Origin: Acidobacteriota bacterium
Lineage (GTDB): Bacteria; Acidobacteriota; UBA6911; RPQK01; JAJDTT01
DNA length: 64,000 nucleotides
NCBI GenBank assembly: GCA_965217775.1
Contig: CBDCJH010000002.1
Location: 6,112,001-6,176,000, forward strand
Direction: 5' to 3'
Shown here: in pieces, positions 5,057 to 63,990 of the stretch
Layout of the letters: each line of letters starts with the position of its first letter
Position numbering within the stretch: the stretch's first letter is position 1
The notes under the pieces: generated by a model
Seen by the model: only the letters and a program-made list of their open reading frames with translations
Database searches by the model: none
What the model was told of the DNA's origin: nothing
Made by a program: the position numbers and the translations under genes

Positions 5057-6090
5057 CTCTCACCGGCTGCGTGGCTCAGGGTTGGCGGAATCTGTCGGCC
5101 CACAAGAAGTCGATCCTCTATCTCTACCTGGTGATCCTGGGATCGGCGTCCATTCTGCTGCTTCCCTTCATGGAGAGCTTCGAATCCTCCCTGGGCGCCG
5201 GCCTCTATCGGGAACGGCTGGTGACGGTTCTGGACTACGACTGGTACCAGCTCTTCCGGGACCGGGTCCAGGGGGCGGCCGAGAGCTTCGGTCCCTGGGT
5301 CCTGGGAGCCGGACCCTTTCTCCACACCCTGGAGGTTCTGCTGGAAGACGGCTTCGGCAAGTTGCCGGCGGCGGTGCTCGGCGCCGCTGCCATCTATCTC
5401 CTGCTGCACACCTTCGTACTCTCGGCGGCGGTCAGCTCCCTTCACCTCCACCCCGGCGGGGGCAGCACCCGCGGGTTCCTCCGCAACGGAGCCGAGTTCT
5501 TCGGCCGGTTCCTCAGGCTGAGCCTGCTGGCGCTTCTTCTCTACTGGTTCTTGAGGCACGTGCTCCTGACCCCCGTGAACGGGTGGGTCGACTCGTTTTC
5601 CGACGCCGCCGCGACCGAGGTCACGGGTTTCTACCTCAGTCTGGCGCGTTATCTTCTGGTCCTCGTCCTGGTCCTGGGACTGGACCTGATCCTGGACTAC
5701 GCTCGAATCAAGGTCGTGCTGGAGGACCGCACCAGCATCCTGTTGGCCGTGGTGGCCGCGGTCGGATTCTGCAAGAGGAATTTCCTGGGCGCCACCGGGC
5801 TCTACCTGCTCCTGGTGGGCTTCACCCTGGTCTGGGCCGGCGTTTATCTGGGCTTCGATACCCTGGTCGGAGACGATTCCCGGGGAGGCATCCTGGTGGT
5901 CTTCCTGGCGCAGCAGATCCAGGTTTTGGGCAGAATGGCCCTCAAACTCCTGGGCTTCGGCGCCCAGATCCAGTTCGTCAAGAGCCGCGATCCCTGGTTC
6001 CGCGACCGGGACCCAGGAGGGGGGACAACAGGAGGGGGGACATCCCTGTCCCCCACAGTCCCAAGCAATGGACCCGAGGAAACGGCATGA
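5053..6090 (+). CDS. Polytopic membrane protein, translationally coupled to the M1 and M28 peptidase genes
   Basis: ATGA overlaps at both ends (5053, 6087); several hydrophobic segments; start placed at the ATG at 5053 within ORF 4843-6090. Confidence 0.8.
   Translation: MTLTGCVAQGWRNLSAHKKSILYLYLVILGSASILLLPFMESFESSLGAGLYRERLVTVLDYDWYQLFRDRVQGAAESFGPWVLGAGPFLHTLEVLLEDGFGKLPAAVLGAAAIYLLLHTFVLSAAVSSLHLHPGGGSTRGFLRNGAEFFGRFLRLSLLALLLYWFLRHVLLTPVNGWVDSFSDAAATEVTGFYLSLARYLLVLVLVLGLDLILDYARIKVVLEDRTSILLAVVAAVGFCKRNFLGATGLYLLLVGFTLVWAGVYLGFDTLVGDDSRGGILVVFLAQQIQVLGRMALKLLGFGAQIQFVKSRDPWFRDRDPGGGTTGGGTSLSPTVPSNGPEETA
6014..6057 (+). repeat. GGAG-type REP palindrome (GGGGGACATCCCTGTCCCCC) inside the 3' end of a CDS
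   Basis: Same palindrome as at 7871-7941; preceded by a duplicated CAGGAGGGGGGACA half-copy. Confidence 0.75.
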
Positions 6091-12748: not shown

Positions 12749-14108
12749 ATGGAGCTGTATCCGCCGCGCGCCGTGGAGTGGGCGATGAAGGTGCAGGAAG
12801 TGATCCTTCGAGCGATGAGTGGGCAGATCAAGTGGTTCCAGGCGGCTGAGATCATCGGAGTGAGTCCTCGAACCATGCGGCGCTGGCGGCGCCGTTACGA
12901 GGAGTACGGCTACGACGGATTATACGATCGACGGCTGAAGCGGCCCTCGCCCAAACGGGTCCTCCTGGCCACGGTCGAGAAGGTGCTGCGGCTGTACCAG
13001 GAGAAGTACCGGGACTTCAACGTCGCCCATTTCGTGGAGAAGCTGCACTTCAAAGAAGGGATTCCTCTGAATTACAGCTGGGTGAAGAAGGCGCTCTCTG
13101 GAGTCGGGACTGGTTCGGAAGCGGCGGCGACGGGGGACGCACCGGCGACGCCGACCGCGGCGGCCTCTGAAGGGGATGATGTTGCACCTGGACGGGAGCA
13201 AACATCGCTGGTTGCCGGGTTCGGGATACCAAGACCTGATCCTGAGGTTCGACGATGCGGACAGCGAGGTCTACCAGTCCGTGGTGAAAGTCCCGCGAGC
13301 ACCGAGACCGTTCCTGCGCCCGCCGGACAAGGCGCGATTCGGGAGCATACCGGGAGTATGTGATCGAATCGCAACGCAGTCCGCCGGGATGCAGGGACGG
13401 TCGGATGCCGTGGCGACTTTTGCCACGGGCTGCTACTACGCGCAACTGGTGGCGGAAGAGAGCACGAAGACGGTGATGGCGGCGATCCGGGAGGTGGTCG
13501 GTCAACAAGGCGTGTTCAATTCGCTTTACACGGACGCGGCGAGTCACTTCGTGCACACGCCGGTGGCGGGATACCCGCCGGACCGGGAGCATCGGACCCG
13601 GGTGGCGCGGGCGTTGGAGCGGCTGGAGATCGAGTTGATCGTGGCGCATTCCCCCCAGGCGCGGGGTCGGTGCGAAGGGATGTTCGGGACCTGGCAGGGC
13701 CGGCTGCCGCAGGAGTTGCGGTTGCGAGGGATCCGCACGCTGAAAGAGCCGAACCGGTATCTGCGGGAGGGGTGGATCGGGTTTCACAATCGACGCTTCA
13801 CGGTGCCGCCGGCTCCAGCGGGAACGGCCTTTGTTCCGGCCGACGGGATCGATCTGGAGCAGATCTTTTCCCACCGGGAGAACCGGGTGGTGGGCGCGGA
13901 CAATACGGTGCGGTACCGGCGGCGGGTTCTGCAGATCGAACCGCAGAGGTTTCGCCACACTCTGGCCAAGTGCCGGGTGTGGGTGTGCGAGCACCTGGAC
14001 GGGAACTTGAGCCTTTACTACGGGCTTCACCGGCTGGGGCGATCCGACGGGGGGTTCAAATTTTCACCGACCGGACAGATCACGTGTCAAAAAAACCGGA
14101 CAACTTGA
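12749..14108 (+). pseudogene. ISNCY/IS1202-type DDE transposase, frameshifted near 13098 and carrying an in-frame MITE
   Basis: N-terminal HTH in ORF 12749-13363; LHLDGSKHRW, DDA, LYTD, SPQARGR.E...TWQGRL in ORF 13176-14108; the frames join if one base is removed in GCGCTCTCTGGAG. Confidence 0.88.
13275..13432 (-). mobile_element. 158-bp MITE, full copy, 4-bp target duplication CTAC
   Basis: TIRs CAGTCCGTGGTGAAAGTC / GACTTTTGCCACGGGCTG; CTAC at 13271-13274 and 13433-13436; removing it restores the codons S-E-V-Y-Y-A-Q-L. Confidence 0.95.
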
Positions 14109-14287
14109 CGTGCTAATGACACCGGGCACTCGCCATCATCCTGATGCCGAGGCCGATTGAGTATTGCGGATTGTTGATGCAGTGCCTATCAGCATGACCG
14201 CCACCCGCCAAGAGGTGCGCCAGGATGAGAGAAGTAAAGGATCTCAATGACCGCTTACTCCAATTGCCCAGGTGTGAGGCATCCCGG

Positions 14288-14755
14288 TCAGCAAGCCTCG
14301 GCTTCGTCCTTTTCCGCGTAGACCGAGGCTTCGAAGTCCGTCCATGCTTGGGCTCGTACCTTCCGTGCCTGCTCACGAAGATCGACGCCTTTGGCGCGGG
14401 CATCGGCGAGGGTGGTTGTCATGGCGACCTGTTCGTTCTTCGGCGGGATGGAAAAAGTGAAGCCCAAAAAGCGGGTTTCGAGATGTTCTTCATCGTTGGT
14501 GAAGTCCGGTCACGTTCGCTCCGATCTGGCGCCGAACATCGGAGATACGGAGAATCTCCATCAGAAACGTCGCGTCAACCGGCGCGGGTTGGCGTGCAAC
14601 GGACCGGAAGATCTTGTCGCAAAGCATGAGTTTCGGGCACCTCTCTCTAATCAAGGCAGTTACGCCGACGAGCCGCGTGATGTTGACGCGGCTAATCAGG
14701 AGTTGCCCTGGCTTCGCCTCAAGGTGTGGACGCGGCTTGAGGTGTTTGGGCAGTG
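14288..14755 (-). pseudogene. Relic of a type I restriction-modification specificity subunit (HsdS, C-terminal TRD)
   Basis: Across frameshifts it reads KPGQLLISRVNITRLVG...KLMLCDKIFR...RRQIGANVTG/TSPTMKNISKPAF/LGFTFSIPPKNEQ followed by a helical tail; cut at the 5' side by the IS6 end. Confidence 0.7.
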
Positions 14756-15310
14756 GGTTGTGTTGCAACTTTGGCCGACGACGGCTGGTAGCCTGAGGAG
14801 ATCATGAAGAAGGCAATCCGACCGGCGATCTTCAAGTGGCGAGAAACGGAGCCCGATTTGATTCTTTGCGCCGTGCGCTGGTAGCTTCGCTATTCCTCTC
14901 GTTCCGCGATGTCGAAGAGCGGCTCAGCGAGCGCGCCCTGGAGGCGGACCCCACGACAATCTGGCGCTGGGTCCAGCGCTACGGTCCCGAACTGGAGGAG
15001 CGGAGGCGCCGTCGTCTCAAGCCAACCAACAAGTCCTGGCGTGTCGATGAGACCTACGTTCGCCTCAATGATCGCTGGTGCTACCTCTACCGCGCCATCG
15101 ATTCCACCGCCGCCACGATCGACTGCGTACTCTCGGGGTTGCTCATGCCGCGGCGGCCAAACGCCTGTTCCGCAAGGCGCTGACTGATCCGTCGCATCCT
15201 CAACCCCGCGTCATCAACCCGGACCAGGCGCGCATCTGTAAACTCGGCGATCCTCGCCGTGCAAGAACAAGGAACGCTGCGTCGCCGATGCCGACATCGC
15301 CTGACCCCTG
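14756..15310 (+). pseudogene. Degenerate IS6-family element (left IR plus broken transposase)
   Basis: GGTTGTGTTGCAACTT resembles an IS6 IR; FKWRETEPDLILCAVRW*, TTIWRWVQRY, SWRVDETYV...YLYRAIDS, AAKRLFRKAL; contains stops and frameshifts and is 3'-truncated. Confidence 0.85.
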
Positions 15311-17188: not shown

Positions 17189-17509
17189 TCAGGAATGGGC
17201 ATCGGTTCTGCTCCCTGCTACCGCCATCATCGTTTTCCGGGGCTGGACGCGCTCGGCAATACTACGGCCAGACTCGATCTCTTCCCGCCGCAGCTCCCAG
17301 GTCTTCTGCAGATTCATCCAGACCTGCCGTGTCGTCCCGAAGTAGCGCGCCAGGCGCAATGCGGTGTTGGCGGTTACGCCCCGCTGCCCATTCAGGATCG
17401 CCGTGATTCGATTCACCGGGACGTCGAGCGCCTTCGACAACGCATTCGCCGACAGGCCAAGCTCATCCAATTCGTCCCGCAAGATCTCTCCCGGATGCAC
17501 CGCCCGCAT
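17189..17509 (-). CDS. higA: HigA-family antitoxin
   Basis: HPGEILRDEL...TALRLARYFGTT..WMNLQ; the RBS-linked upstream ATG (17527) is followed by an in-frame TAG. Confidence 0.9.
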   Translation of the reverse strand: MRAVHPGEILRDELDELGLSANALSKALDVPVNRITAILNGQRGVTANTALRLARYFGTTRQVWMNLQKTWELRREEIESGRSIAERVQPRKTMMAVAGSRTDAHS

Positions 17510-17596
17510 TCTATTCTAGAAGCTCATCGCCTCGACCTCCTCAGTGATAATCTAGGGGATTATATACGTAAGTGCCGAGAATTCAGGCTGATGGGT

Positions 17597-17602
17597 TACA
17601 AT
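17597..17602 (+). promoter_or_regulatory. Putative -10 box for a leaderless tnpB transcript
   Basis: TACAAT 7 nt before the ATG at 17610; no Shine-Dalgarno sequence. Confidence 0.5.
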
Positions 17603-17609
17603 TCCGACC

Positions 17610-18785
17610 ATGAAAGGCCACGCAACTATCCAGTGCAGAGCCAAGCTGTCCAAGGGTGGAATCCGGCGGTTGGACCGGGTGAGGTCCATCCTGAATCGGC
17701 TGTACAACGCTGCACTGGAGGAACGCAGGACGACGTGGGAATCCGAGGAACGCGGCGTGACCCTGTACGATCAGATGAAGGGGTTGACCTCCCAGAGGAA
17801 GGACGATCCGGAGGGGCTCGGGTCGGTGGCGGTCAAAGCGGAGCGTGGGATGTTGATGCGGTTGGACCGGGCCTTCAAGGCGTTCTTCCGTCGCTGCAAG
17901 GCGGGGGAGAAGCCGGGGTATCCTCGATTCCGGCCCATTGCGAGGATGGAGACCATCGACGTCGTCGACCCCAAAGCGACCATGGTGAAGAAGCGCGCTC
18001 GGGGCTACGCCATCCGGCCCAAGGGCTTCCCGACGATCCGGATATTTCCGTCCCGGCCGTTGCCGGACGGATGCCCGTTGAAGGCGTTGCGGATTGTCCG
18101 CAAGCCGAACCGGGTGTATGTGGACCTGACGTACGAGGTGGAGAAGCCGCCGCTACCGAAATGCGAGTCTTCGGTAGGGATCGACCTGGGCGTCCGCAAG
18201 CGAGCGGTGCTGTCCACGGGTGAGAGGATCGAACGGAATAGACGGGACTGGGCGGGGATCCGAAAGCAGCAGAGAAAGGTCTCCAGGTGCAAGAAGATTT
18301 CCAAGACCAGACGGAAGCGGATCGTACAGCTATCTCGGCTCCGTCACCGGGAAGCGGTCCGAAACCGTAATGCCTGCCATCGTCTCTCCAGCAGGATCAT
18401 TCGTGAGCACGGTCTGATCGCTGTGGAGAAGCTGAACATCCAAGGGATGGTAACGAAGGGCTCGAAGAAGAAGGGGCTGAATCGAGAAATAATGACGCAA
18501 TCCTGGGGGCTTCTGCGGAATCAACTCCAGTACAAGGCAGAATGGGCCGGTCGGAAGTTCGTAGAAGTGAATCCCGCATATACATCGCAGGACTGCCACC
18601 GGTGCGGCGCCCGCCACGATCCAGGGCGGAGCGAAACCTTCCGGTGCAGGGCCTGCGGACTTAGAATGGACAGGGACCACAATGCCGCCCTGAACATTCT
18701 CAGGGCTGGGGTTCTTGCCCTGGGCACCGGAACGTATCTCGTTGGGGAAAGCGTGGTGCCAGAACTGTATGCCAAGGGCACTTAG
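17610..18785 (+). CDS. tnpB: RNA-guided endonuclease TnpB
   Basis: LYNAALEER, KPGYPRF, RuvC-I GIDLG, RuvC-II IAVEKL, YTSQDCHRC...CRAC zinc finger, RuvC-III DRDHNAALNI. Confidence 0.96.
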   Translation: MKGHATIQCRAKLSKGGIRRLDRVRSILNRLYNAALEERRTTWESEERGVTLYDQMKGLTSQRKDDPEGLGSVAVKAERGMLMRLDRAFKAFFRRCKAGEKPGYPRFRPIARMETIDVVDPKATMVKKRARGYAIRPKGFPTIRIFPSRPLPDGCPLKALRIVRKPNRVYVDLTYEVEKPPLPKCESSVGIDLGVRKRAVLSTGERIERNRRDWAGIRKQQRKVSRCKKISKTRRKRIVQLSRLRHREAVRNRNACHRLSSRIIREHGLIAVEKLNIQGMVTKGSKKKGLNREIMTQSWGLLRNQLQYKAEWAGRKFVEVNPAYTSQDCHRCGARHDPGRSETFRCRACGLRMDRDHNAALNILRAGVLALGTGTYLVGESVVPELYAKGT

Positions 18786-18874
18786 GTATATAAGCCCCAT
18801 AATCTATGATGTTGACGGGTGTGGGTGAGTGTATCAGCGGTCATCTGAGTTCTTTCCTCAAGTTCGTCTCACTA

Positions 18875-19474
18875 TCAATTCAGCAGTTGCCGGCAGGTCA
18901 CCTGCAGCATTTTCCGCACTAAGGGGCGCGCTAAGCGATCAGGAAGGCTGGCGTCGCAGCGAAGGAAATCTACAAGCTCGGAGGACCGTCCAAGAACCTG
19001 CACATCTCGAACCGGCGGGTCCCCGACCTGCGGGTCGATCCATCGTGTGCCGACAACCGTCAGGGCATCTCTGCTGTCGACCTGGTCGACGAGGATGACG
19101 TTCGCATCTTGCAGTGATACCTCTATGTCCTGCACTCGGGCCGTCCGAGTCTGGCGGTTAAACTGTAGGTTCAGCGTGAAATCGCCAAAGAAGAAGTGGT
19201 GATCCCAGGTTTCCCCGGAACCGCCAGTCCGGCTTCCGCTGGATTCGTCTCGGCCACCTTCTAAAAACCAGCCAGGACTTCCGCGCCAGAGGACGAGCAC
19301 CTCAAGTTCTCCGTCACCCGCCTGCCCGTGAGAGGTGAACAACGTGGCCACTACAGCGGGAGACACCGGCCGAGACCCGCCGGCTCCCGAAGGGGGACGG
19401 TCCCGTGCCTGGGCTTGGAGGGAGACTGACGCCAAGACGCTTAGCAATAGGAAGCAGTGCACTTTTCGTAACAT
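18875..19474 (-). CDS. Hypothetical exported protein
   Basis: 199-aa ORF with a signal-peptide-like N-terminus. Confidence 0.65.
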   Translation of the reverse strand: MLRKVHCFLLLSVLASVSLQAQARDRPPSGAGGSRPVSPAVVATLFTSHGQAGDGELEVLVLWRGSPGWFLEGGRDESSGSRTGGSGETWDHHFFFGDFTLNLQFNRQTRTARVQDIEVSLQDANVILVDQVDSRDALTVVGTRWIDPQVGDPPVRDVQVLGRSSELVDFLRCDASLPDRLARPLVRKMLQVTCRQLLN

Positions 19475-33937: not shown

Positions 33938-35933
33938 CCCAGATTATTCATCACGCAAACATAAAATGGGAAAGCGTTCCCGCCATGTCGAGTCGGATCA
34001 GAGGGTTACGGGATACCCACATAAAAAGGTCGAGAGCCGCCGTGGGTGAAACGCTATCGTGGTTTTCGACTCCGCCTTAATCTTTGGGTTCAGAGGGGTC
34101 CGAAACCCTCGCATTTCCAAGGTTTTCTCCCCTTCCATGGGCGGCAAAAAGAGGCGGCGTGCCCGTCATTTGTGGTATGATTATGGTGCTAAGAAACAAC
34201 AACAAAGAACGGAGCACGCCATGCCTGAGACGATACCGCAGATCCGGCCCTCATTCAACCGATCCCTCCGCCTCGAGACCCGCCCCGAGTTGCTCAGTGC
34301 GGACACGGGAGCCCTGGTGCAACGGGAGCTGATGGATCGTAGCGGCCTCATCGATTGGTTGACCGAGCGGTTGCACGATCCGCGACACCCGAGTTCGATC
34401 CGCTATCCGCTGTCGGATCTGCTGCGGACTCGACTCCTGCTGTTGGGGCAGGGCTGGCGCGACCAGTCCGACGCCGACCGCCTGCGTCAGGATCCGAGCT
34501 TGCGGGTGGCGAGCCAGACCCGTCGGGGCACGGCGGCCTTGGAGGAGGGCCAGGGGCTGGCGTCGCAGCCGACCTTGTCCCGACTGCTGGACACACTCAG
34601 CCGGGAGGAGAACCTTCCGGTCCTGCACCAGGCGGTGACGGAGCTGGCGTGCCGTCGGATCGAGATGATCGCAGGCCGGCGGCGAAAACGGGGGAAAAAG
34701 ACCCCACGGAAGAAGAGACGGAAAAAGACGATGTACCTGGACGTGGACGGTCTCCCGGTGGAGGTCCATGGGCATCCCCCGGGAAGCGAATGGAACGGAT
34801 ACTATCGCCAGCGGATGTACCACGGGTTGGTGGCGAGTTGTGCCGAGACGGGGGACCTGATCGACGGGGAGATTTTTCCGGGAGCCAGCTACCTGGGGAA
34901 GAAGGCGCTGAAGTTGACGCTCCGGGTCGTGGACCGCTGTCGGGGGCGTCTGTGCGGCTCGATGATCGTGCGGATGGATGCGGGGTTCCCGGAGCCGGGG
35001 CTGCTGCAGGGGCTGGAGTCGAGAAGCGTGCCCTATATCGCTCGAATCCGCAAGAATGAGGTCCTGAACCGGATGGCGAAGCTCTACTTGACCCAACCGG
35101 CGGGGCGGTCCCCGAAAGCACCGCCGAGGCTCTGGTTCCATGAGCTGACCTATCAGGCGGAGAGTTGGGATCGGGCGCGCCGGGTGGTGCTGGTGGTGCG
35201 GGAGCGACCGGGGGAGTTGTATCCGGATCATTTCTGGTTGCTGACGAGCCTGAGCCGGAAGCGTTATGAGGCGGAAGCGTTGCTGGCAAAGTATCGCAAG
35301 CGGGGGAAGGCGGAAGGGCACATGGGGGAGTTGATGGACGTGTTCGATCCGGCCTTGTCCTCCGCGAGCCGGCCCAAGACGCACTATCGGGGCAAACCGC
35401 TGAAGCCGGGAACCAAGCCGGAAGCGACGACGGAGGCCGGGGTTCGACCCCACAACGAAGTCTTGTTCCTGCTGAATCTGCTGGGGTACGAGATCCTGCA
35501 CCTGGGTCGGGTGCTGATGGAGCAGGCGACGCGTCGGGGCTGGAGTCTGCGTCGTTTTCGCGAGCGGGTGTTGCGAGTGGCGTCTCGGGCGTTGCGTCAG
35601 GGGAGGCGATTGATTTTCGTCATCAGTCAAGGGGCGACGGACTGGAAGCGGTTGTGGAAGAGCCTGGCGCGGGTGTCCTGGGCGCCGGGATAGTGGACGG
35701 AGGAGGCATCGGGCCCGTGGAAGGGACCGAAACGGTGGGAATTTCTCACCGGAAAGTCAACCTGTCGGCGGATGACGGTCCCCCTGGCCGGTAAACGGTT
35801 TATGAGTGGTTCAATCGTCCTGTTTTTGAGCCGATTCAGTCGAATCGACAGAGGTTCGAGAGAAACCGGGCTCCGACCGCCAGAAAACGCCGGGCTGGAA
35901 GCCCTTATCAACATGTCCCATGAATAATCTGGG
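33938..35933 (+). mobile_element. IS1380-family insertion sequence, 5-bp target duplication GTGAT
   Basis: Perfect 14-bp TIRs CCCAGATTATTCAT / ATGAATAATCTGGG; GTGAT at 33933-33937 and 35934-35938. Confidence 0.93.
34221..35693 (+). CDS. IS1380-family DDE transposase
   Basis: DPR...RY.L.DLL, LASQPTLSR, LDVD, NGYY...YH, VRMDAGF, Y..RG..E...GE. Confidence 0.92.
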   Translation: MPETIPQIRPSFNRSLRLETRPELLSADTGALVQRELMDRSGLIDWLTERLHDPRHPSSIRYPLSDLLRTRLLLLGQGWRDQSDADRLRQDPSLRVASQTRRGTAALEEGQGLASQPTLSRLLDTLSREENLPVLHQAVTELACRRIEMIAGRRRKRGKKTPRKKRRKKTMYLDVDGLPVEVHGHPPGSEWNGYYRQRMYHGLVASCAETGDLIDGEIFPGASYLGKKALKLTLRVVDRCRGRLCGSMIVRMDAGFPEPGLLQGLESRSVPYIARIRKNEVLNRMAKLYLTQPAGRSPKAPPRLWFHELTYQAESWDRARRVVLVVRERPGELYPDHFWLLTSLSRKRYEAEALLAKYRKRGKAEGHMGELMDVFDPALSSASRPKTHYRGKPLKPGTKPEATTEAGVRPHNEVLFLLNLLGYEILHLGRVLMEQATRRGWSLRRFRERVLRVASRALRQGRRLIFVISQGATDWKRLWKSLARVSWAPG

Positions 35934-36205: not shown

Positions 36206-39200
36206 CTAATCGAATCTCGTCGTTTGAGTTTCCAGCCATTGCAGACGCCGATCAACCTCCAGTTTTGGCTCGGCATCTACCAATCGGTCGATAATTTTGG
36301 AAATTTCGAAGAAACTTCCTCGGCTCCCGGGACCGCACACCAGCCAAAGTAAGGAGAGGGTCTCTTGGGGAAACTGTTCCGCTATCTTCGACGATAGGAT
36401 CGTATGTAAGGTTCCGTACCGCTGGTCATATGGAGCAATGTATGGTCGTAGTTGCTCCAGAGCAGCCGGGAATTCGTTGCCCGCTCCAACCAATAAATCA
36501 ATCCAGGGGGATGTGAGAGATGAATCGCGGAATTCGAGTTCTTTTGGCCAATAATCTTCAAGAAAAATTCGGACGCCGAGGCGCCAATTATCTTCAACAC
36601 TGGATTTGCCGCCGTGAAGCCAGCTTGCCAGCACCTCCAGTGCTCCAGATCTAATGCTGTGCTGAGTCTTTCGTAGCACCTGGGCGACGTCCGACGCGCC
36701 AAGCCCCCAATTCACACCAGTATCTCCCCGAACCTCAGCCATTGCAGGGCGAAGAACTTTGGAAGCAATCGTAGCGGCGGCGTGATCAGCTTGCTCGCTT
36801 TCAATCGCGCCTTTTATGATTGCCGGTCCGAGCACGTGAGTTAGCTCTGGCGTAATCGGGCCGTAACGCAACAACACTGCGCGTAGAGCTACTCCCTCAG
36901 CATTCTCAGCGTTGATGCGTGGTTCAAGAATCTCAATCACGGACTGTTGATCGACCGCGAGCAAAAAGGACAAATAACGTGCAAGAATAGCGCGCCCGAG
37001 CTGTCCGGCTGCGCCAGGGTAGCCGGATATTCTTCTAATGAGTCGGAATTGTAATGGTGAGGGTGAAGCGCCAACTTGCCGCTTGGCATCTACCTCATAC
37101 AGCAACGCCTCCGTCACCTTCCCGGCGTCAGAATTAATCGCTATTTCGTAGATATCGGTCGAGAGATCGACCGGCTCCTCCCGCTGCTCTCCAACAATTT
37201 GCCAAATGCGCTCAAGCCAGCTCACAACACCCACAATATCTTGTCGGGGCGCGAAATATATTAAGTTAGCTAAACTCGAAGCCATTGGCCGAAGCAGATC
37301 CTGACTGAAAGCGGACAAGTGTAGGAACACCTTAGGTACTAGTCCGTCCCGAATCGTCTTGCTCGCTTCATCGCCAACCGCCAGTCCAAAGAGGAACTCA
37401 TTCCATAGGACCCCATTTTCTATAGTAAGGTTGTCTCTGCAGAGTAAATCGAATGCTCCTTGCGGGTCGGTTCGGCAGTAAGCGGACCACCCTTGTCGCA
37501 AGTCCATTTCTGGGCTGTCGATGAGTTCCTGTGCAACTGTGAGGCGATCGTCTTCCGCAGCCTCCAAGATCGGTGCCGGATTTCCAACAATACGGCGCAC
37601 GCCGGAGCTATAGGCGCCAAAAAAATCTCGGTCTTCCACCGCGCGGTTAAGGTAGTCCCGCCGCACTTTGATGGCGGCAAGCACTTCGCTGCCGTGTTCG
37701 GATAGAACACCGGCGTCCTGCAGCATGTTGAGTCGAAGCCATACTGCTGTATCGCGCGCGTGGGATCGCCAGTCAGCTTCGCCGGGTTCAATCGTATAGC
37801 GGTCGAAATATGCCTTACTAGTTTGGAGTATGCGCTCTTCAACCCCGCTCACGATTTCTGGAGAAGCAGTTTCTGCCCGCTCCTTTAAGAGGAGCGCGAT
37901 TTCACGGCGGATCCTCCAGAAATCAATATCGGATGTGGACAACAAGGTTGACATCGCCTCGTCTGCGTCGAAGAGTTCGACATTACGCATAGCATGGAGG
38001 CAAAGCCGCAGCCCGATTCGTCCGGTCAAGCTCTTCCAGCCGATTACAATTCTTCTTGTGTAATCCCGGTCCAAAGTCGCAGCCTGACAAAAAATTTCCG
38101 CAAGCAACTGAACCAGAAAATTCACTCCTTCGCGAAACTGGTTCTGCGTGTGGCGTTCAATCGAGGGTACTGTGAAATCGTTTGAGTCGTTTTCTTCACC
38201 GATTTGCTCAAGTTCGACCTGGAGTTCGAGAGCAGAACGCAGTTCAGCCGTTGCGAGGTCGAGAATCTGTGTAGCTCGGGCCGGCATTGAGCACAACGTA
38301 TCAGCGAGGTCCTCGGCATTGTGCCGGCTGGAGATCGCCATGCGAGGCCACACGATATCGGCAAGCCGCCGGATTGGTTGACTTTCATTCTGTTCACGTG
38401 ACTCGCGATAACTCTGGCTCAGCACGAGCCGGGGCGCGAGTAGGCCCACGGCCTTCCGAAGATCGCTGTCTAGAACAACGGCACTCGTCAGCCGTTTCTT
38501 AGTCGCGTAATAGGCCTGATCGTCGTCTGGGACAGGTTCAGCGAGGCAGAAAAGTCGCCAAATACGGGTCCATGTTTCGTCCAAACCCTGTGTTTGGACC
38601 AACCGCTGCGAGATATGTTCGGTAAATAGCCGTTTTAGACGGCGCTGCCACTCGCATGCAAATTCAAACCGGTCGCGATCTTGAAAGTCCTGGGAGACCC
38701 AGTCTGCGATCACCCAAGGAGCGTCTTCAACTGACCACAATCCCGAGTCCTGAAAAAACTCAAACCATTCGGGGTCCGTAATCGCATCGAGAGCGACTGA
38801 CCAAAGATCGCGGCGGCCACTGAAGAGCCAGCCAAGTTCTCTTCGAGAATCTCCGTCCGCCTCCGCGACAGGTCGCTCCAAAATCGTGCGTGCCCGTTCC
38901 CTCCGCGACCGTTTCGGGCGGTCAACAATCTCCGCCAGTTCCGCTAGGTCTCTCCACAGCGGGGAGTGGTCGTGTTTGCCGCTGTCCCGATTTATTTTGC
39001 TGTAGGGCAGGGTCACCACGGCGAGCGTGCCCCAAGGGCGGGTGGCTTCCTCCGGATCGCGCTCATATGAATCGAACGCATATACGGGCTTAAGATCCGG
39101 GAAGCGTACACGATCCGCTTCAAGCACATTGAGGAAATACCTGACTGGCGCGTCCTTTGCGCTGTATCCCACGAGAACAATCGCCTTGCAGCGCGCCAGA

Positions 39201-39814
39201 TCGAAGAGAAAGCGCGATGCCCATCCGGAGCGCAAATAAGCATCGCCATAATCGGCGCTCGTAAGTACGAGCGGGGTCTGTTCGAGGTCGAGTTTGCGAT
39301 CGGGGAGACGGCCATGAATGTGAATGATGCCCGAAAAAGACGGGCTGCCCGGAGCGGGAAGCGCTTGACCTGCGAAGCTGACTACAACTGGTGTTTCGCC
39401 CAGTATGTCCGCTGCAGCTCTCTCCAGCAGAGTGTCAAAGTTCGTGGTGACTACCGAGATTCTGTTATCGAGGTCACGTGACAGACGCAGAATTGTGCAA
39501 TGCTGATGGTGGATGGGTTTCTCGGGTATCTCAAGGATTTCCGAAACCGTCCGTGTCACGGCGTACGGGTCAGATAGCCGTCGGCTAAGTGATCCCAGGA
39601 CTTCTTCATAGCGGTCCTCGGCAAACGCACGTTGCTCCGACTCCGTTTTCTCAACAGATAGGGCCTCGTACGTACGCTCGACCAGAGATCTAAAACCCGG
39701 CATTTGCGGTGCACTTACTCCTGTGCCACATAGGAAAACCACCTCGCCGCCCAAGAGTGCGTCGACGAATTCGTCCGGGAATTCGGGGCCATCGTTGGAA
39801 AAACGAAGGGTCAC
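36206..39814 (-). CDS. Large SIR2-domain protein (~1200 aa; Dsr1-like anti-phage sirtuin)
   Basis: GPEFPD...GEVVFLCGTGVS, TTNFD, HIHG, LVGYS; long helical C-terminus; GTG start at 39814 behind GGAGA; lower GC than the flanks. Confidence 0.82.
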   Translation of the reverse strand: MTLRFSNDGPEFPDEFVDALLGGEVVFLCGTGVSAPQMPGFRSLVERTYEALSVEKTESEQRAFAEDRYEEVLGSLSRRLSDPYAVTRTVSEILEIPEKPIHHQHCTILRLSRDLDNRISVVTTNFDTLLERAAADILGETPVVVSFAGQALPAPGSPSFSGIIHIHGRLPDRKLDLEQTPLVLTSADYGDAYLRSGWASRFLFDLARCKAIVLVGYSAKDAPVRYFLNVLEADRVRFPDLKPVYAFDSYERDPEEATRPWGTLAVVTLPYSKINRDSGKHDHSPLWRDLAELAEIVDRPKRSRRERARTILERPVAEADGDSRRELGWLFSGRRDLWSVALDAITDPEWFEFFQDSGLWSVEDAPWVIADWVSQDFQDRDRFEFACEWQRRLKRLFTEHISQRLVQTQGLDETWTRIWRLFCLAEPVPDDDQAYYATKKRLTSAVVLDSDLRKAVGLLAPRLVLSQSYRESREQNESQPIRRLADIVWPRMAISSRHNAEDLADTLCSMPARATQILDLATAELRSALELQVELEQIGEENDSNDFTVPSIERHTQNQFREGVNFLVQLLAEIFCQAATLDRDYTRRIVIGWKSLTGRIGLRLCLHAMRNVELFDADEAMSTLLSTSDIDFWRIRREIALLLKERAETASPEIVSGVEERILQTSKAYFDRYTIEPGEADWRSHARDTAVWLRLNMLQDAGVLSEHGSEVLAAIKVRRDYLNRAVEDRDFFGAYSSGVRRIVGNPAPILEAAEDDRLTVAQELIDSPEMDLRQGWSAYCRTDPQGAFDLLCRDNLTIENGVLWNEFLFGLAVGDEASKTIRDGLVPKVFLHLSAFSQDLLRPMASSLANLIYFAPRQDIVGVVSWLERIWQIVGEQREEPVDLSTDIYEIAINSDAGKVTEALLYEVDAKRQVGASPSPLQFRLIRRISGYPGAAGQLGRAILARYLSFLLAVDQQSVIEILEPRINAENAEGVALRAVLLRYGPITPELTHVLGPAIIKGAIESEQADHAAATIASKVLRPAMAEVRGDTGVNWGLGASDVAQVLRKTQHSIRSGALEVLASWLHGGKSSVEDNWRLGVRIFLEDYWPKELEFRDSSLTSPWIDLLVGAGNEFPAALEQLRPYIAPYDQRYGTLHTILSSKIAEQFPQETLSLLWLVCGPGSRGSFFEISKIIDRLVDAEPKLEVDRRLQWLETQTTRFD

Positions 39815-40382
39815 TGACCATCTCCGTGCAGGTTTATTGAGTATTCCCTGATCATCAGAGCGAAGCCGTAACCGCCACCGGTCGGACCTCCGAAATACGA
39901 TTCGTGAAGGGACGCCGGACCAATCGCCCGCTGCGGACGAAGAGAAATGGCGCAACTGTAGGAACCAACGTAAGAACACATAGGCGGAATTGGAGCGATG
40001 ACCTTGCCCGAGAAAGGCCAGCGAATGCCAGACGATGGATTCCGGGGATTTCCACGAACGCCGTCCGCGGTGCACTGATTTCTGAGAAGGTTCATCTTCA
40101 GGTTTCTTCTGCAAAAATGTCCCAACAAACTGGAACTAATTTCTGCAAGTTTCTTTACCGTGGTCGACACAGCGGATGAAAGTTCCTTCGTTCCCATTCT
40201 CGCAACCAAAGACCTCATAATCTCCGGGCTAAGCGAAAAGGTAGTCGGCAATGGAATGGCAGCCATAACTAAGCACACATGGGCCACTCTACACCGATTC
40301 GGTTCGAGAATTGAAAACCGACCGGACCGTTGTGTGTAGTCGATGCTTGTCGCTGGCTGTACACGGTAGCGCCCCGGTGCGG

Positions 40383-62808: not shown

Positions 62809-63990
62809 TCAGCGGCGGCCCAGGAGTCGGGACAACTGGGCCATAGCCGGGTGAGTCGTCGAAGTGGCAGACGGCATGCTTTCATACCGATCCAGCAGTT
62901 CGGACTCAGCAAATAATTGTGGCCAGTCCAGGTTGGCGGCGATTCGTCCTCCGTCCACCACGACGGCGGATAGTTCCAACAGCCTGAACAGATCTCTCAC
63001 CATTGCGCGATCGGGATGCTTGAGACCCAGGTAAAGCGCTCGTCCCCGATTCACCAGGTCGCGCGGTTCTGTTGGGCCGGTGTCCAGCAGGATCTCCAGG
63101 ATCTCCAACTGGCGCTGGGCCAGAACTCGACGGCGAGGACTGCGTAGTTTCCCAAACAACGATCTGGCGAATTCCCGGAACAGCACTCGCCGATGGTTGG
63201 TGGCGATGGCCTCGGTGACCGCGTTGCATCTCTCGGCCACCGCCGGCAGCGCAAACTTCAGGAACGGCGTCAGATCGTGTCCGTTCTTCCGGGTTTCGTA
63301 CAGAGCGGTCAGGTACTCGTCTTGGTGTTCGTAGTAGTAGTTGGACAGGCTGACCATGATCACGTCGTTGACGCCGGCCCGCCGCAGCATGAACGCTTCC
63401 AGGGCACGGGCGGTGCGGCCGTTTCCGTCGCCGAAAGGGTGCATCGCACCGATGTGGTAGTGAGCCGCGATGGCCTGAATGAGGCGGTCGTGGCGCCGGA
63501 ACTCTCCGGCGATGGCGGTGACGAGGCCGTCGAATGCGGCGCGGCATTCATTGCCGCCCTCAGCGCCCCGGCAGCGTGGCGTTCCGAATGTGACGTTCCA
63601 ACCATCAGGACGTGTCTCACCCGGTGTGCAATTGCGATCGTCGCATCCGGTTACAATGCGCCGGTGAATTTCCCGGCTGAACTCGGCGGTTACCGGCTGT
63701 TCGGCTGGTCGCGAGCGCAGCCACCGGTAGGTAGCGTCGGCGGCCCGCAGTTGACGCTGGGAATGGGTCAATTTGGTCGCCCCAGTCGCGGCGGGTGCAA
63801 GAGCTTTTTCTTGTTCGCGCTGCGTGAACTGGGCGCCTTCGATGCGCGAAGTGCCGGCCGCTTCCAATCGCAACTGCTCCTCGTGTGCCTGCTCGATCCA
63901 CTGAGGTAGATACGGCATCTGATTCAGGACGCCGCCGGCGGTCCTGGCCTCGATCAGCAGGTGGAAGACGGCAGAGGGATCGTAGTGCAC
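62809..63990 (-). CDS. Fic-family protein (probably starts beyond the window end)
   Basis: TSRIEG; canonical HPFGDGNGRTAR motif; Y..AL...DLT. Confidence 0.93.
   Translation of the reverse strand: MHYDPSAVFHLLIEARTAGGVLNQMPYLPQWIEQAHEEQLRLEAAGTSRIEGAQFTQREQEKALAPAATGATKLTHSQRQLRAADATYRWLRSRPAEQPVTAEFSREIHRRIVTGCDDRNCTPGETRPDGWNVTFGTPRCRGAEGGNECRAAFDGLVTAIAGEFRRHDRLIQAIAAHYHIGAMHPFGDGNGRTARALEAFMLRRAGVNDVIMVSLSNYYYEHQDEYLTALYETRKNGHDLTPFLKFALPAVAERCNAVTEAIATNHRRVLFREFARSLFGKLRSPRRRVLAQRQLEILEILLDTGPTEPRDLVNRGRALYLGLKHPDRAMVRDLFRLLELSAVVVDGGRIAANLDWPQLFAESELLDRYESMPSATSTTHPAMAQLSRLLGRR

Follow-up and report, generated by a model that had tools for sequence, protein, structure and literature searches.

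A bacterial TnpB element with terminal inverted repeats and a predicted omegaRNA scaffold that takes in the right repeat

Introduction

The omegaRNA that guides the TnpB nuclease of ISDra2 possesses, according to passages of PMC10097598, a 116-nt scaffold of four stems, in which a pseudoknot between positions -6 to -2 and -102 to -106 is stacked on stem 1, followed after a single nucleotide by a guide of 16 nt, whose seed covers about 12 nt. As transposons, the IS200/IS605 and IS607 elements lack terminal inverted repeats (TIRs) as well as target site duplications (TSDs), as stated in passages of a 2026 review (PMC13565253). Here we describe a tnpB gene which is enclosed by both, on a stretch of 64,000 nucleotides from an Acidobacteriota bacterium (GenBank assembly GCA_965217775.1, contig CBDCJH010000002.1, positions 6,112,001 to 6,176,000 of the forward strand). 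This whole stretch is called the window below, and all coordinates without further label refer to it.

TnpB in elements with TIRs is an already known kind. In passages of their study, Altae-Tran et al. (2023, PMC10691335) describe TnpB branches associated with DDE transposases and inverted terminal repeats, as well as solo TnpBs with ends nearly identical to those of transposase-bearing elements, for which mobilisation in trans was suggested. The rarity of pairings between OMEGA systems and DDE transposases in prokaryotes is discussed in the 2026 review, passages of which name ISL2, IS630 and IS1031 as DDE partners of TnpB (PMC13565253). Fanzors are found as the sole gene of TIR elements, the TIR being part of the RNA (passages of Yoon et al. 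2023, PMC10711439, and Saito et al. 2023, PMC10432273); the RNAs of Fanzor1 and Fanzor2* reach about 15 nt past the TSD, and TIR and TSD are both predicted to lie in the scaffold (passages of Yoon et al. 2023, PMC10711439).

The element in the window resembles ISDra2 in its homologous protein with the RuvC residues D, E and D and a zinc finger, in an RNA which would overlap the 3' end of tnpB, and in the predicted order of its parts, where stem 1 holds one pseudoknot strand within its loop and is followed by inner stems, by a last stem and, immediately ahead of the guide, by the other strand of the pseudoknot. Unlike ISDra2, it has TIRs and an 8-bp TSD and is devoid of IS605 ends and of tnpA; its last stem and pseudoknot strand would be built from TIR sequence, and its guide would begin with duplicated target DNA. 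Inverted repeats around tnpB are present, as in the DDE-associated branches; a transposase-bearing counterpart was not found in scans of open reading frames (ORFs) and plasmids, and the anatomy of the RNA at the TIR is not described for those branches in the passages of PMC10691335. The likeness to Fanzors lies in a TnpB-family nuclease standing alone in a non-autonomous TIR/TSD element, with the TIR in the predicted scaffold and an RNA that would read beyond the element. Fanzor hosts, however, are eukaryotic or viral, a pseudoknot is reported to be absent from Fanzor1 RNA and the TSD is said to be scaffold, whereas the clade described here has bacterial hosts, a predicted pseudoknot and a TSD that is more likely guide. 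Within the literature searched, a bacterial clade with 8-bp TSDs, in which the TIR would serve as last stem and pseudoknot strand, appears to be new, as do an RNA-based explanation for the asymmetry of the TIRs and the TSD as start of the guide.

The reading which we favour, and hold to be moderately likely, is that of a non-autonomous transposon with TIRs and an 8-bp TSD, whose sole cargo is an ISDra2-like TnpB together with an omegaRNA that has a scaffold built in part from the TIR and a guide taken from outside the element.

Borders of the element and the TnpB protein

The element occupies positions 17555-18798 (1244 bp) and contains tnpB as its only gene. Its borders were computed directly from the following features:

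17547-17554, no strand: left TSD copy, 8 bp, ATAATCTA, identical to 18799-18806 and abutting the TIR
17555-17576, + strand: left TIR, 22 nt, 20 of 22 complementary to 18777-18798
17610-18785, + strand: tnpB, 391 aa, intact, ending with TAG at 18783-18785 inside the right TIR
18777-18798, + strand: right TIR, 22 nt, predicted to double as 3' arm of hairpin 3 and as 3' strand of the pseudoknot
18799-18806: right TSD copy, directly adjoining the right TIR

With up to three mismatches allowed, the 22-nt TIR sequence is met at just two sites in the 64 kb, where 100 shuffles gave an expectation of 0.00; the two copies mismatch each other at positions 18785 and 18794. An IS200/IS605 element of the IS1341 group would show no TIR and no TSD, would have subterminal hairpins and would insert 3' of a fixed tetra- or pentanucleotide, whereas a 22-nt TIR and an exact 8-bp TSD are seen in the window and in six further complete elements, and the terminal ..TCAC or ..TCAA, present in 13 canonical relatives, is absent from the TIR clade. 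Because TIR and TSD are present, the element is, as a transposon, a member of neither IS200/IS605 nor IS607.

The tnpB product matches the Pfam models Cas12f1-like_TNB (PF07282, E = 1.3e-26) and OrfB_IS605 (PF01385, E = 2e-17), both above cut-offs, and its closest natural solved structure is the TnpB of ISDra2 (8bf8/8ex9/8exa, 8h1j; E = 5e-32, residues 27-375). The catalytic motifs are intact: D192, E273 and D356 align with the RuvC motifs GVDVG, GTEHL and DRDEN of ISDra2, an alignment of 37 relatives shows no variation at D192 and E273, and D356 as well as the zinc-finger residues C329, C332, C346 and C349 are at least 90% conserved there. With the D, E and D residues of a RuvC-like nuclease and a CxxC..CxxC zinc finger in place, the nuclease looks, by its sequence, intact. 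At five of the positions that contact the target-adjacent motif (TAM) in ISDra2, the aligned residue is changed (Y52 to L, S56 to M, K76 to V, F77 to K and Q80 to R), and since these residues differ, a TTGAT TAM is not expected. One homologue of 473 aa (P0036), 65% identical over 98% of the query, has an N-terminal HTH_37 in place of the OrfB_IS605 call, and may be a fusion or the result of a mis-called start.

Related elements and their distribution

A word-based protein search, in which 8000 candidates were scored, gave 6506 homologues of the window TnpB; the best of them is 96% identical and represents a cluster of 188 member sequences. A genome scan confirmed 523 relatives, of which 80 loci (given L numbers below) were taken further. 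Strong TIRs around tnpB were detected by an inverted-repeat scan in only four of 81 sources, namely the window, L001, L003 and L021. Alignment added L002 and also L018, a truncated near-copy of L003 that keeps the right end alone. Two plasmid elements of Bosea are of equal build and have a different TIR sequence. Positions within these loci are as follows:

L002, 3894-3901 and 5235-5242: the two TSD copies
L081, 2911-4269: Bosea plasmid element, TIRs matching at 18 of 22 positions, exact 8-bp TSD
L082, 2436-3807: Bosea plasmid element, TIRs matching at 20 of 22 positions, exact 8-bp TSD

Annotated merely as 'RNA-guided endonuclease TnpB family protein', L081 and L082 actually represent a second TIR type of the clade.

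The seven complete elements measure 1244-1429 bp, their TIRs begin with GG and match at 14-22 of 22 positions, and an exact 8-bp TSD flanks each of them. Five genome-derived elements sit among unrelated housekeeping genes. To judge by these sequences, the TIR/TSD elements are independent insertions of a non-autonomous transposon. In a quick maximum-likelihood tree of 41 TnpBs (midpoint root), all seven TIR/TSD TnpBs fall on one side of a branch with an SH-aLRT of 97, and none of 500 label shuffles was as clustered. The input for this tree were the window and 47 of 82 loci, from which L005, L010, L032, L044, L050, L064 and L066 were dropped for in-frame stops; most of the 35 loci left out were either incomplete matches or additional copies from actinobacteria and cyanobacteria. 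The hosts of the TIR clade belong to Acidobacteriota, Chloroflexota and Alphaproteobacteria, and the canonical relatives, at most 37% identical, are without TIR. In a plasmid collection, all 4250 records matching the window TnpB in tblastn, and all 3815 matching the TnpB of L021, stayed below 60% identity. The whole Bosea element gave 21 records there in blastn, the full-length ones being itself and one 77% relative.

Some observations on the target sites may be added. The window element and L002 share an identical 8-bp TSD at 50% protein identity, in different organisms and with unrelated flanks, and L003 and L018, which belong to one genome, have A-rich, near-identical TSDs. All TSDs of the window type are AT-rich within GC-rich DNA, which points to a strong target preference. 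In L003 (3825-3837 / 5158-5170) and L021 (3651-3663 / 5093-5105) the AT-rich TSD is central to a near-palindromic target site, so that these insertions look as if made into the loop of a hairpin-like site.

Structure of the predicted omegaRNA

A first-pass annotation of this locus, made from the letters alone, had proposed two hairpins inside the coding sequence, after the last RuvC motif, as part of an omegaRNA region fused to the TIR. Both hairpins lie where it placed them and covary in five related elements, and, taken as one, the tnpB 3' end and the right TIR do look like an omegaRNA scaffold. The features of this model are:

18701-18722, + strand: hairpin 1, stem 18701-18706 / 18717-18722, with the 5' strand of the predicted pseudoknot in the loop (18707-18716); counterpart of ISDra2 stem 1
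18723-18760, + strand: hairpin 2, with outer (18723-18728 / 18755-18760), middle (18732-18735 / 18751-18754) and inner helix (18737-18740 / 18745-18748)
18761-18765, + strand: AGAAC linker, conserved and single-stranded, positional counterpart of the canonical AGAAGC
18766-18792, + strand: hairpin 3, in which 18766-18776 pairs with 18781-18792 around the loop 18777-18780, formed by linker and most of the right TIR
18783-18785, + strand: TAG stop in the right TIR; G18785 is the first TIR mismatch and pairs with C18773 in hairpin 3
18793-18798, + strand: predicted 3' strand of the pseudoknot, AGCCCC, pairing with 18708-18713 (GGGGTT) in the loop of hairpin 1
18799-18814, + strand: predicted guide, 16 nt shown, consisting of right TSD copy and flank; its start may lie 1-2 nt further in

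Folded as a single sequence, 121 nt of this region reach a minimum free energy of -44.4 kcal/mol (z = -1.95), as good a value being found in 7 of 200 shuffles; the outer helix of hairpin 2 is present in this fold. The single-sequence fold is only modestly better than chance, and the comparative support is strong. A covariance model on homologous 3' ends, which had been suggested with the first-pass annotation as a check, was built from the window, L001 and L002; it recovered the other three members (L021, L003 and L018) and in addition the tnpB 3' ends of the TIR element L081 and of the canonical L051. Since MAFFT had misplaced L003 and L018 in the alignment of the six right ends, the alignment to the covariance model was used. 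Across these six, 96.4% of the alignment cells in hairpins 1 and 2 and the pseudoknot pair, as opposed to 37-49% with the partners slid, and 14 of 27 pairs are changed on both sides; none of 500 shuffles reached the observed values. In hairpin 1 (94.4% of cells pairing) both-side changes are found in four of six pairs, and in the outer helix of hairpin 2 (100% pairing) in all six.

Neither hairpin 3 nor the pseudoknot was part of the covariance model. In the unconstrained columns of hairpin 3, 86.7% of cells pair compared to 18-64% when slid, with both-side changes in four of eight pairs, and when the stretch from linker to element end is folded member by member, the linker pairs with most of the TIR, at z values from -0.30 (L021) to -4.83 (L018). 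Each of the six family members has a hairpin 1 loop that is complementary to the six bases at the outer tip of the TIR; for the pseudoknot alone, 92.5% of cells pair vs 32-72.5% slid. It had also been claimed that no IS605-type right end is evident. As far as the terminal ..TCAC or ..TCAA is concerned this is correct, whereas a hairpin is present at the position of the IS605 right-end hairpin, namely hairpin 3 (18766-18776 / 18781-18792).

The canonical right ends consist, in this order, of hairpin 1, hairpin 2, AGAAGC, right-end hairpin and a short tail ..GTCAC, after which unrelated DNA begins. In alignments of both element kinds, AGAAC or AGAAGC stands directly 3' of hairpin 2. Six canonical relatives show pairing between the hairpin 1 loop and the tail, at a distance of 3-8 nt from the end; 97.2% of cells in this canonical structure pair, 16 of 24 pairs are compensatory and none of 500 shuffles was as high. 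This arrangement agrees with the solved RNA of ISDra2 (passages of PMC10097598). L049 was left out of this set, as MAFFT had put its hairpin 1 out of register.

Directly 5' of hairpin 1, within the RuvC-III coding region, lies an inverted repeat of 16 nt (18660-18675 / 18688-18703, 81% complementary), which could be an extra upstream RNA stem or a coincidence of the coding sequence.

Put together, the model would have a scaffold of about 98 nt (18701-18798) that extends over the final 28 codons of tnpB and all of the right TIR, running from hairpin 1 through hairpin 2, the AGAAC linker and hairpin 3 to the tip of the TIR. Hairpin 3 would join the linker to the inner 16 nt of the TIR, and the outer 6 nt would pair back to the loop of hairpin 1. 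This would be the canonical plan of stem 1, pseudoknot, stems 2-3 and stem 4, with the TIR taking the place of right-end hairpin and ..TCAC tail. Because the scaffold includes the whole right TIR, the guide would have to be read from DNA adjoining the element, first the TSD copy and next the flank. A structured RNA that overlaps the tnpB 3' end and the right end and places a pseudoknot beside the guide is predicted by computation. The borders, the intact catalytic motifs and the covarying helices are computed results; we infer the pseudoknot, the start of the guide and every functional step, be it expression, RNA processing or cleavage.

Stop codon, guide start and target-adjacent motif

The ORF ends at TAG 18783-18785 within the right TIR, as the first-pass annotation had noted and the ORF list confirms, and the G of this codon is indeed among the two TIR mismatches; in the left TIR, when reverse-complemented, TAC stands there. 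The second mismatch, G18794, forms a G-U wobble with U18712 in the predicted pseudoknot. The bases of the left TIR would give C-C (with 18773) and U-U (with 18712) at these two places, and at the outer mismatch the TIRs of L021 (protein identity 40%) are asymmetric in the same way. Since both bases specific to the right TIR pair in the RNA model, the stop codon is probably incidental, a by-product of RNA constraint and no designed feature; relatives vary in how long the protein tail beyond ..PEL is and in its sequence. That the stop is made by a TIR mismatch is true to the letter, while its significance is probably small, given the variable tail and the pairing of the mismatch bases in the model.

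Two options had been offered for the guide: a guide starting at the TSD with the TAM supplied by the left flank, or the TIR itself as guide. The former fits best, as the tip of the TIR is complementary to the hairpin 1 loop where the pseudoknot lies in canonical relatives and in the solved omegaRNA of ISDra2; the latter is disfavoured by the pairing of nearly all TIR bases in the scaffold model, with compensatory changes. Because the predicted 3' strand of the pseudoknot is formed by the last six bases of the element, the scaffold most likely runs to the last base, and the guide would start at the TSD or 1-2 nt into it. The gap between pseudoknot strand and right end is 2 nt in canonical relatives, compared with the one nucleotide before the guide in ISDra2 (passages of PMC10097598). 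With up to three mismatches allowed, the window contains no further match to the predicted 16-nt guide. Such a guide would match the element-free allele, and in the model the TAM would then fall at the end of the left flank. A geometry departing from the standard model had been announced as well; the TSD-start guide is favoured, and it is not wholly outside what is known, as the Fanzor RNAs with TIR and TSD show (passages of PMC10711439).

The base 5' of the TSD is G in six of the seven elements, and the TSD starts with A followed by T or A in the five elements of the window type and with CT in both Bosea elements. Judged from these few sequences, the G and the start of the TSD together are a lead for a TAM straddling the border of flank and TSD; the pattern at the TSD start could equally be attributed to a preference of the transposase for AT-rich targets.

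Transposase, transposon family and surroundings

The element would presumably be moved in trans by a DDE transposase. Among the window ORFs scanned for it, only the DDE_Tnp_1_4 gene, a fragment resembling IS6 and an ORF with HTH_28 came up, and the TIR is linked to none of the three. A DDE_Tnp_IS1595 transposase occurs neither among the 78 ORFs of the window nor among 47 ORFs in the flanks of relatives. Members of the IS1595 family usually have 8-bp TSDs, and the IS1595-related Merlin elements of eukaryotes have TIRs with a conserved terminal GG and TSDs of 8-9 bp (passages of PMC8101967). Features of the IS1595 type, namely an 8-bp TSD and TIRs starting with GG, are present in seven of seven elements, the GG being a mark taken from the related Merlin elements. 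The end consensus of one IS1595 subgroup looks compatible with the window-type TIR. An 8-bp TSD is likewise made by the families IS1, IS6, ISL3 and IS66, and ISL2, IS630 and IS1031 make TSDs shorter than 8 bp. The link to IS1595 should accordingly be taken as a lead and not as a result. Within the literature searched, a TnpB element of such kind is undescribed in the papers that name both TnpB and IS1595, as far as their titles, the beginnings of their abstracts and passages of one of them go.

As for the surroundings, an HTH_3 gene (17189-17509, - strand, 106 aa; Cro/C1, antitoxin-like) has the element 38 bp upstream of its start codon. It is without a toxin partner upstream, and the tnpB element occupies its would-be promoter region. 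Debris of insertion sequences (12749-15183) is located 2.4-5 kb upstream of the element:

12749-13363: HTH_28 ORF
13176-14108: ORF of 310 aa with no Pfam match at E up to 1e-6
14836-15183: IS6-like DDE_Tnp_IS240 fragment

The intact DDE_Tnp_1_4 transposase gene (34059-35693) adjoins a gene for a 1302-aa SIR2_2-domain protein (36206-40114), possibly a defence gene. A Fic/DOC family protein is encoded near the end of the window (62809-63990, - strand).

Alternative explanations

Several results weigh against the reading of a TIR-bounded transposon with a TIR-built omegaRNA scaffold. No TIR-linked partner transposase was found among the 78 ORFs of the window (4 adjoining and 74 further ones), nor was any transposase present among the 47 ORFs in flanks of about 4 kb around L001, L002, L003, L018 and L021, and the four plasmid records matched in blastn by the 42-nt right end of the Bosea element include no transposase-bearing element. 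The left TIR of L002 is decayed (14 of 22). The alignment used for the counts on hairpins 1 and 2 had been fitted to the model, so that these counts lean towards structure, and the helices lie within coding sequence, so that their conservation is partly protein-driven. Covariation in the pseudoknot is limited to two of seven pairs, both in the lineage of the near-copies L003 and L018, and for the pseudoknot alone the shuffles are modest, 9 of 500 matching the covariation score and 24 of 500 the percentage paired. The third version of the pseudoknot, seen in L081 and L082, where a different loop complements a different 5-nt end, was read by eye. In a matrix of loop-versus-tail complementarity, the members of the window type did not stand out from mismatched pairs, since a G-rich loop suits every C-rich tail. 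Bases 5' of the TSD, which had been proposed for comparison across copies in the expectation of a conserved TAM, hold no conserved multi-base motif in the left flanks of the seven elements beyond the G in most of them. Finally, the minimum free energy fold contains a nested alternative pairing of the terminal C-run; by inspection, this pairing cannot form in L001.

Among the rivals, the one closest to the favoured reading keeps the same scaffold and lets the TSD, or its first bases, belong to it, the guide starting after the 8 bp, as has been suggested for Fanzor, or, with a straddling TAM, at TSD position 3. We consider this possible and rather unlikely. The predicted scaffolds of Fanzor RNAs with their TIR and TSD (passages of PMC10711439), the 2 nt kept after the pseudoknot in canonical relatives, the G before the TSD in most elements and the shared TSD starts (A then T/A, or CT in Bosea) all speak for it. 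The shared start may, on the other hand, reflect an AT-rich target preference of the transposase, and the gap between pseudoknot and guide in ISDra2 is just one nucleotide (passages of PMC10097598). The TSD as a whole is no fixed structural part, because those of the window and L001 differ at three of the last four positions despite nearly the same scaffold. Much less probable is the TIR as guide, with a scaffold that stops before it and transposon ends as targets. At 22 nt the TIR does approach the length of a guide and it does lie 3' of hairpins 1 and 2; against this, 18781-18792 pair with the linker in every member folded and four of the eight pairs are compensatory, the last six TIR bases are complementary to the hairpin 1 loop, the canonical relatives have scaffold in the homologous stretch, and a guide against its own end would cut every copy of the element.

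That the hairpins are mere by-products of a GC-rich coding sequence, and the element a dead relic with no functional RNA, appears improbable to us, if less so than a TIR guide. The modest z value of the single-sequence fold would suit such a relic. So would an Rfam scan of 17300-19100 (E up to 10), which returned four weak, irrelevant matches far below gathering scores, and the region 17400-19000, where a scan met neither a sigma-70-like promoter on the + strand nor a terminator-like site, as well as the missing transposase partner (window, flanks of relatives and plasmids). Coding constraint alone, however, would not lead one to expect 14 compensatory pairs out of 27, and covariation is also seen in hairpin 3 and the tail, of which part or all lies outside the coding sequence in relatives; the ORF is intact, as are the catalytic residues, the TIRs and the TSD, and a protein 96% identical to the window TnpB represents a 188-member cluster. 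Least probable of all we regard an ordinary IS200/IS605 element of the IS1341 type with tnpB only, in which the inverted repeat would stem from a likeness of the left- and right-end hairpins. Databases do label the protein family 'IS200/IS605 accessory protein TnpB', but IS200/IS605 elements are without TIRs and TSDs (passages of PMC13565253), whereas the repeats here are terminal, inverted and flanked by exact 8-bp duplications in seven of seven elements, and the ..GTCAC end of canonical relatives is absent.

Conclusions

A wider interpretation, which we put forward tentatively and think possible at best, is that one bacterial TnpB clade gave up the IS605 right end, took on a DDE-type TIR in its place and retained the omegaRNA fold, with a nuclease that sees only the element-free allele and a TAM straddling flank and TSD. 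If this were true, the nuclease would recognise that allele alone because the guide starts in the TSD, and the G common to most elements ahead of the TSD, along with the A and the T/A with which the TSD opens, could be read as the TAM. The same 22 bases would be binding site of the transposase, last stem of the RNA and pseudoknot strand at once, and this role in the RNA would explain why the TIRs are not identical.

Cut-and-paste transposition by a DDE enzyme leaves a break and a TSD and no scarless joint, and which service an OMEGA system renders to DDE transposons is the question at stake. With 1.24 kb and one gene, the element is a compact test case, in which RNA, TIR and TSD can be mutated separately, so that the start of the guide, the location of the TAM where the transposase fixes no target motif, and the use of one sequence for both transposase and RNA become addressable. 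The small TnpBs (386-393 aa) with their short scaffold of about 75-100 nt might moreover serve as editors. Should the wider interpretation hold, the function of TnpB would help to decide which insertions persist, and the clade would correspond, on the prokaryotic side, to the step from which Fanzor arose in TIR transposons.

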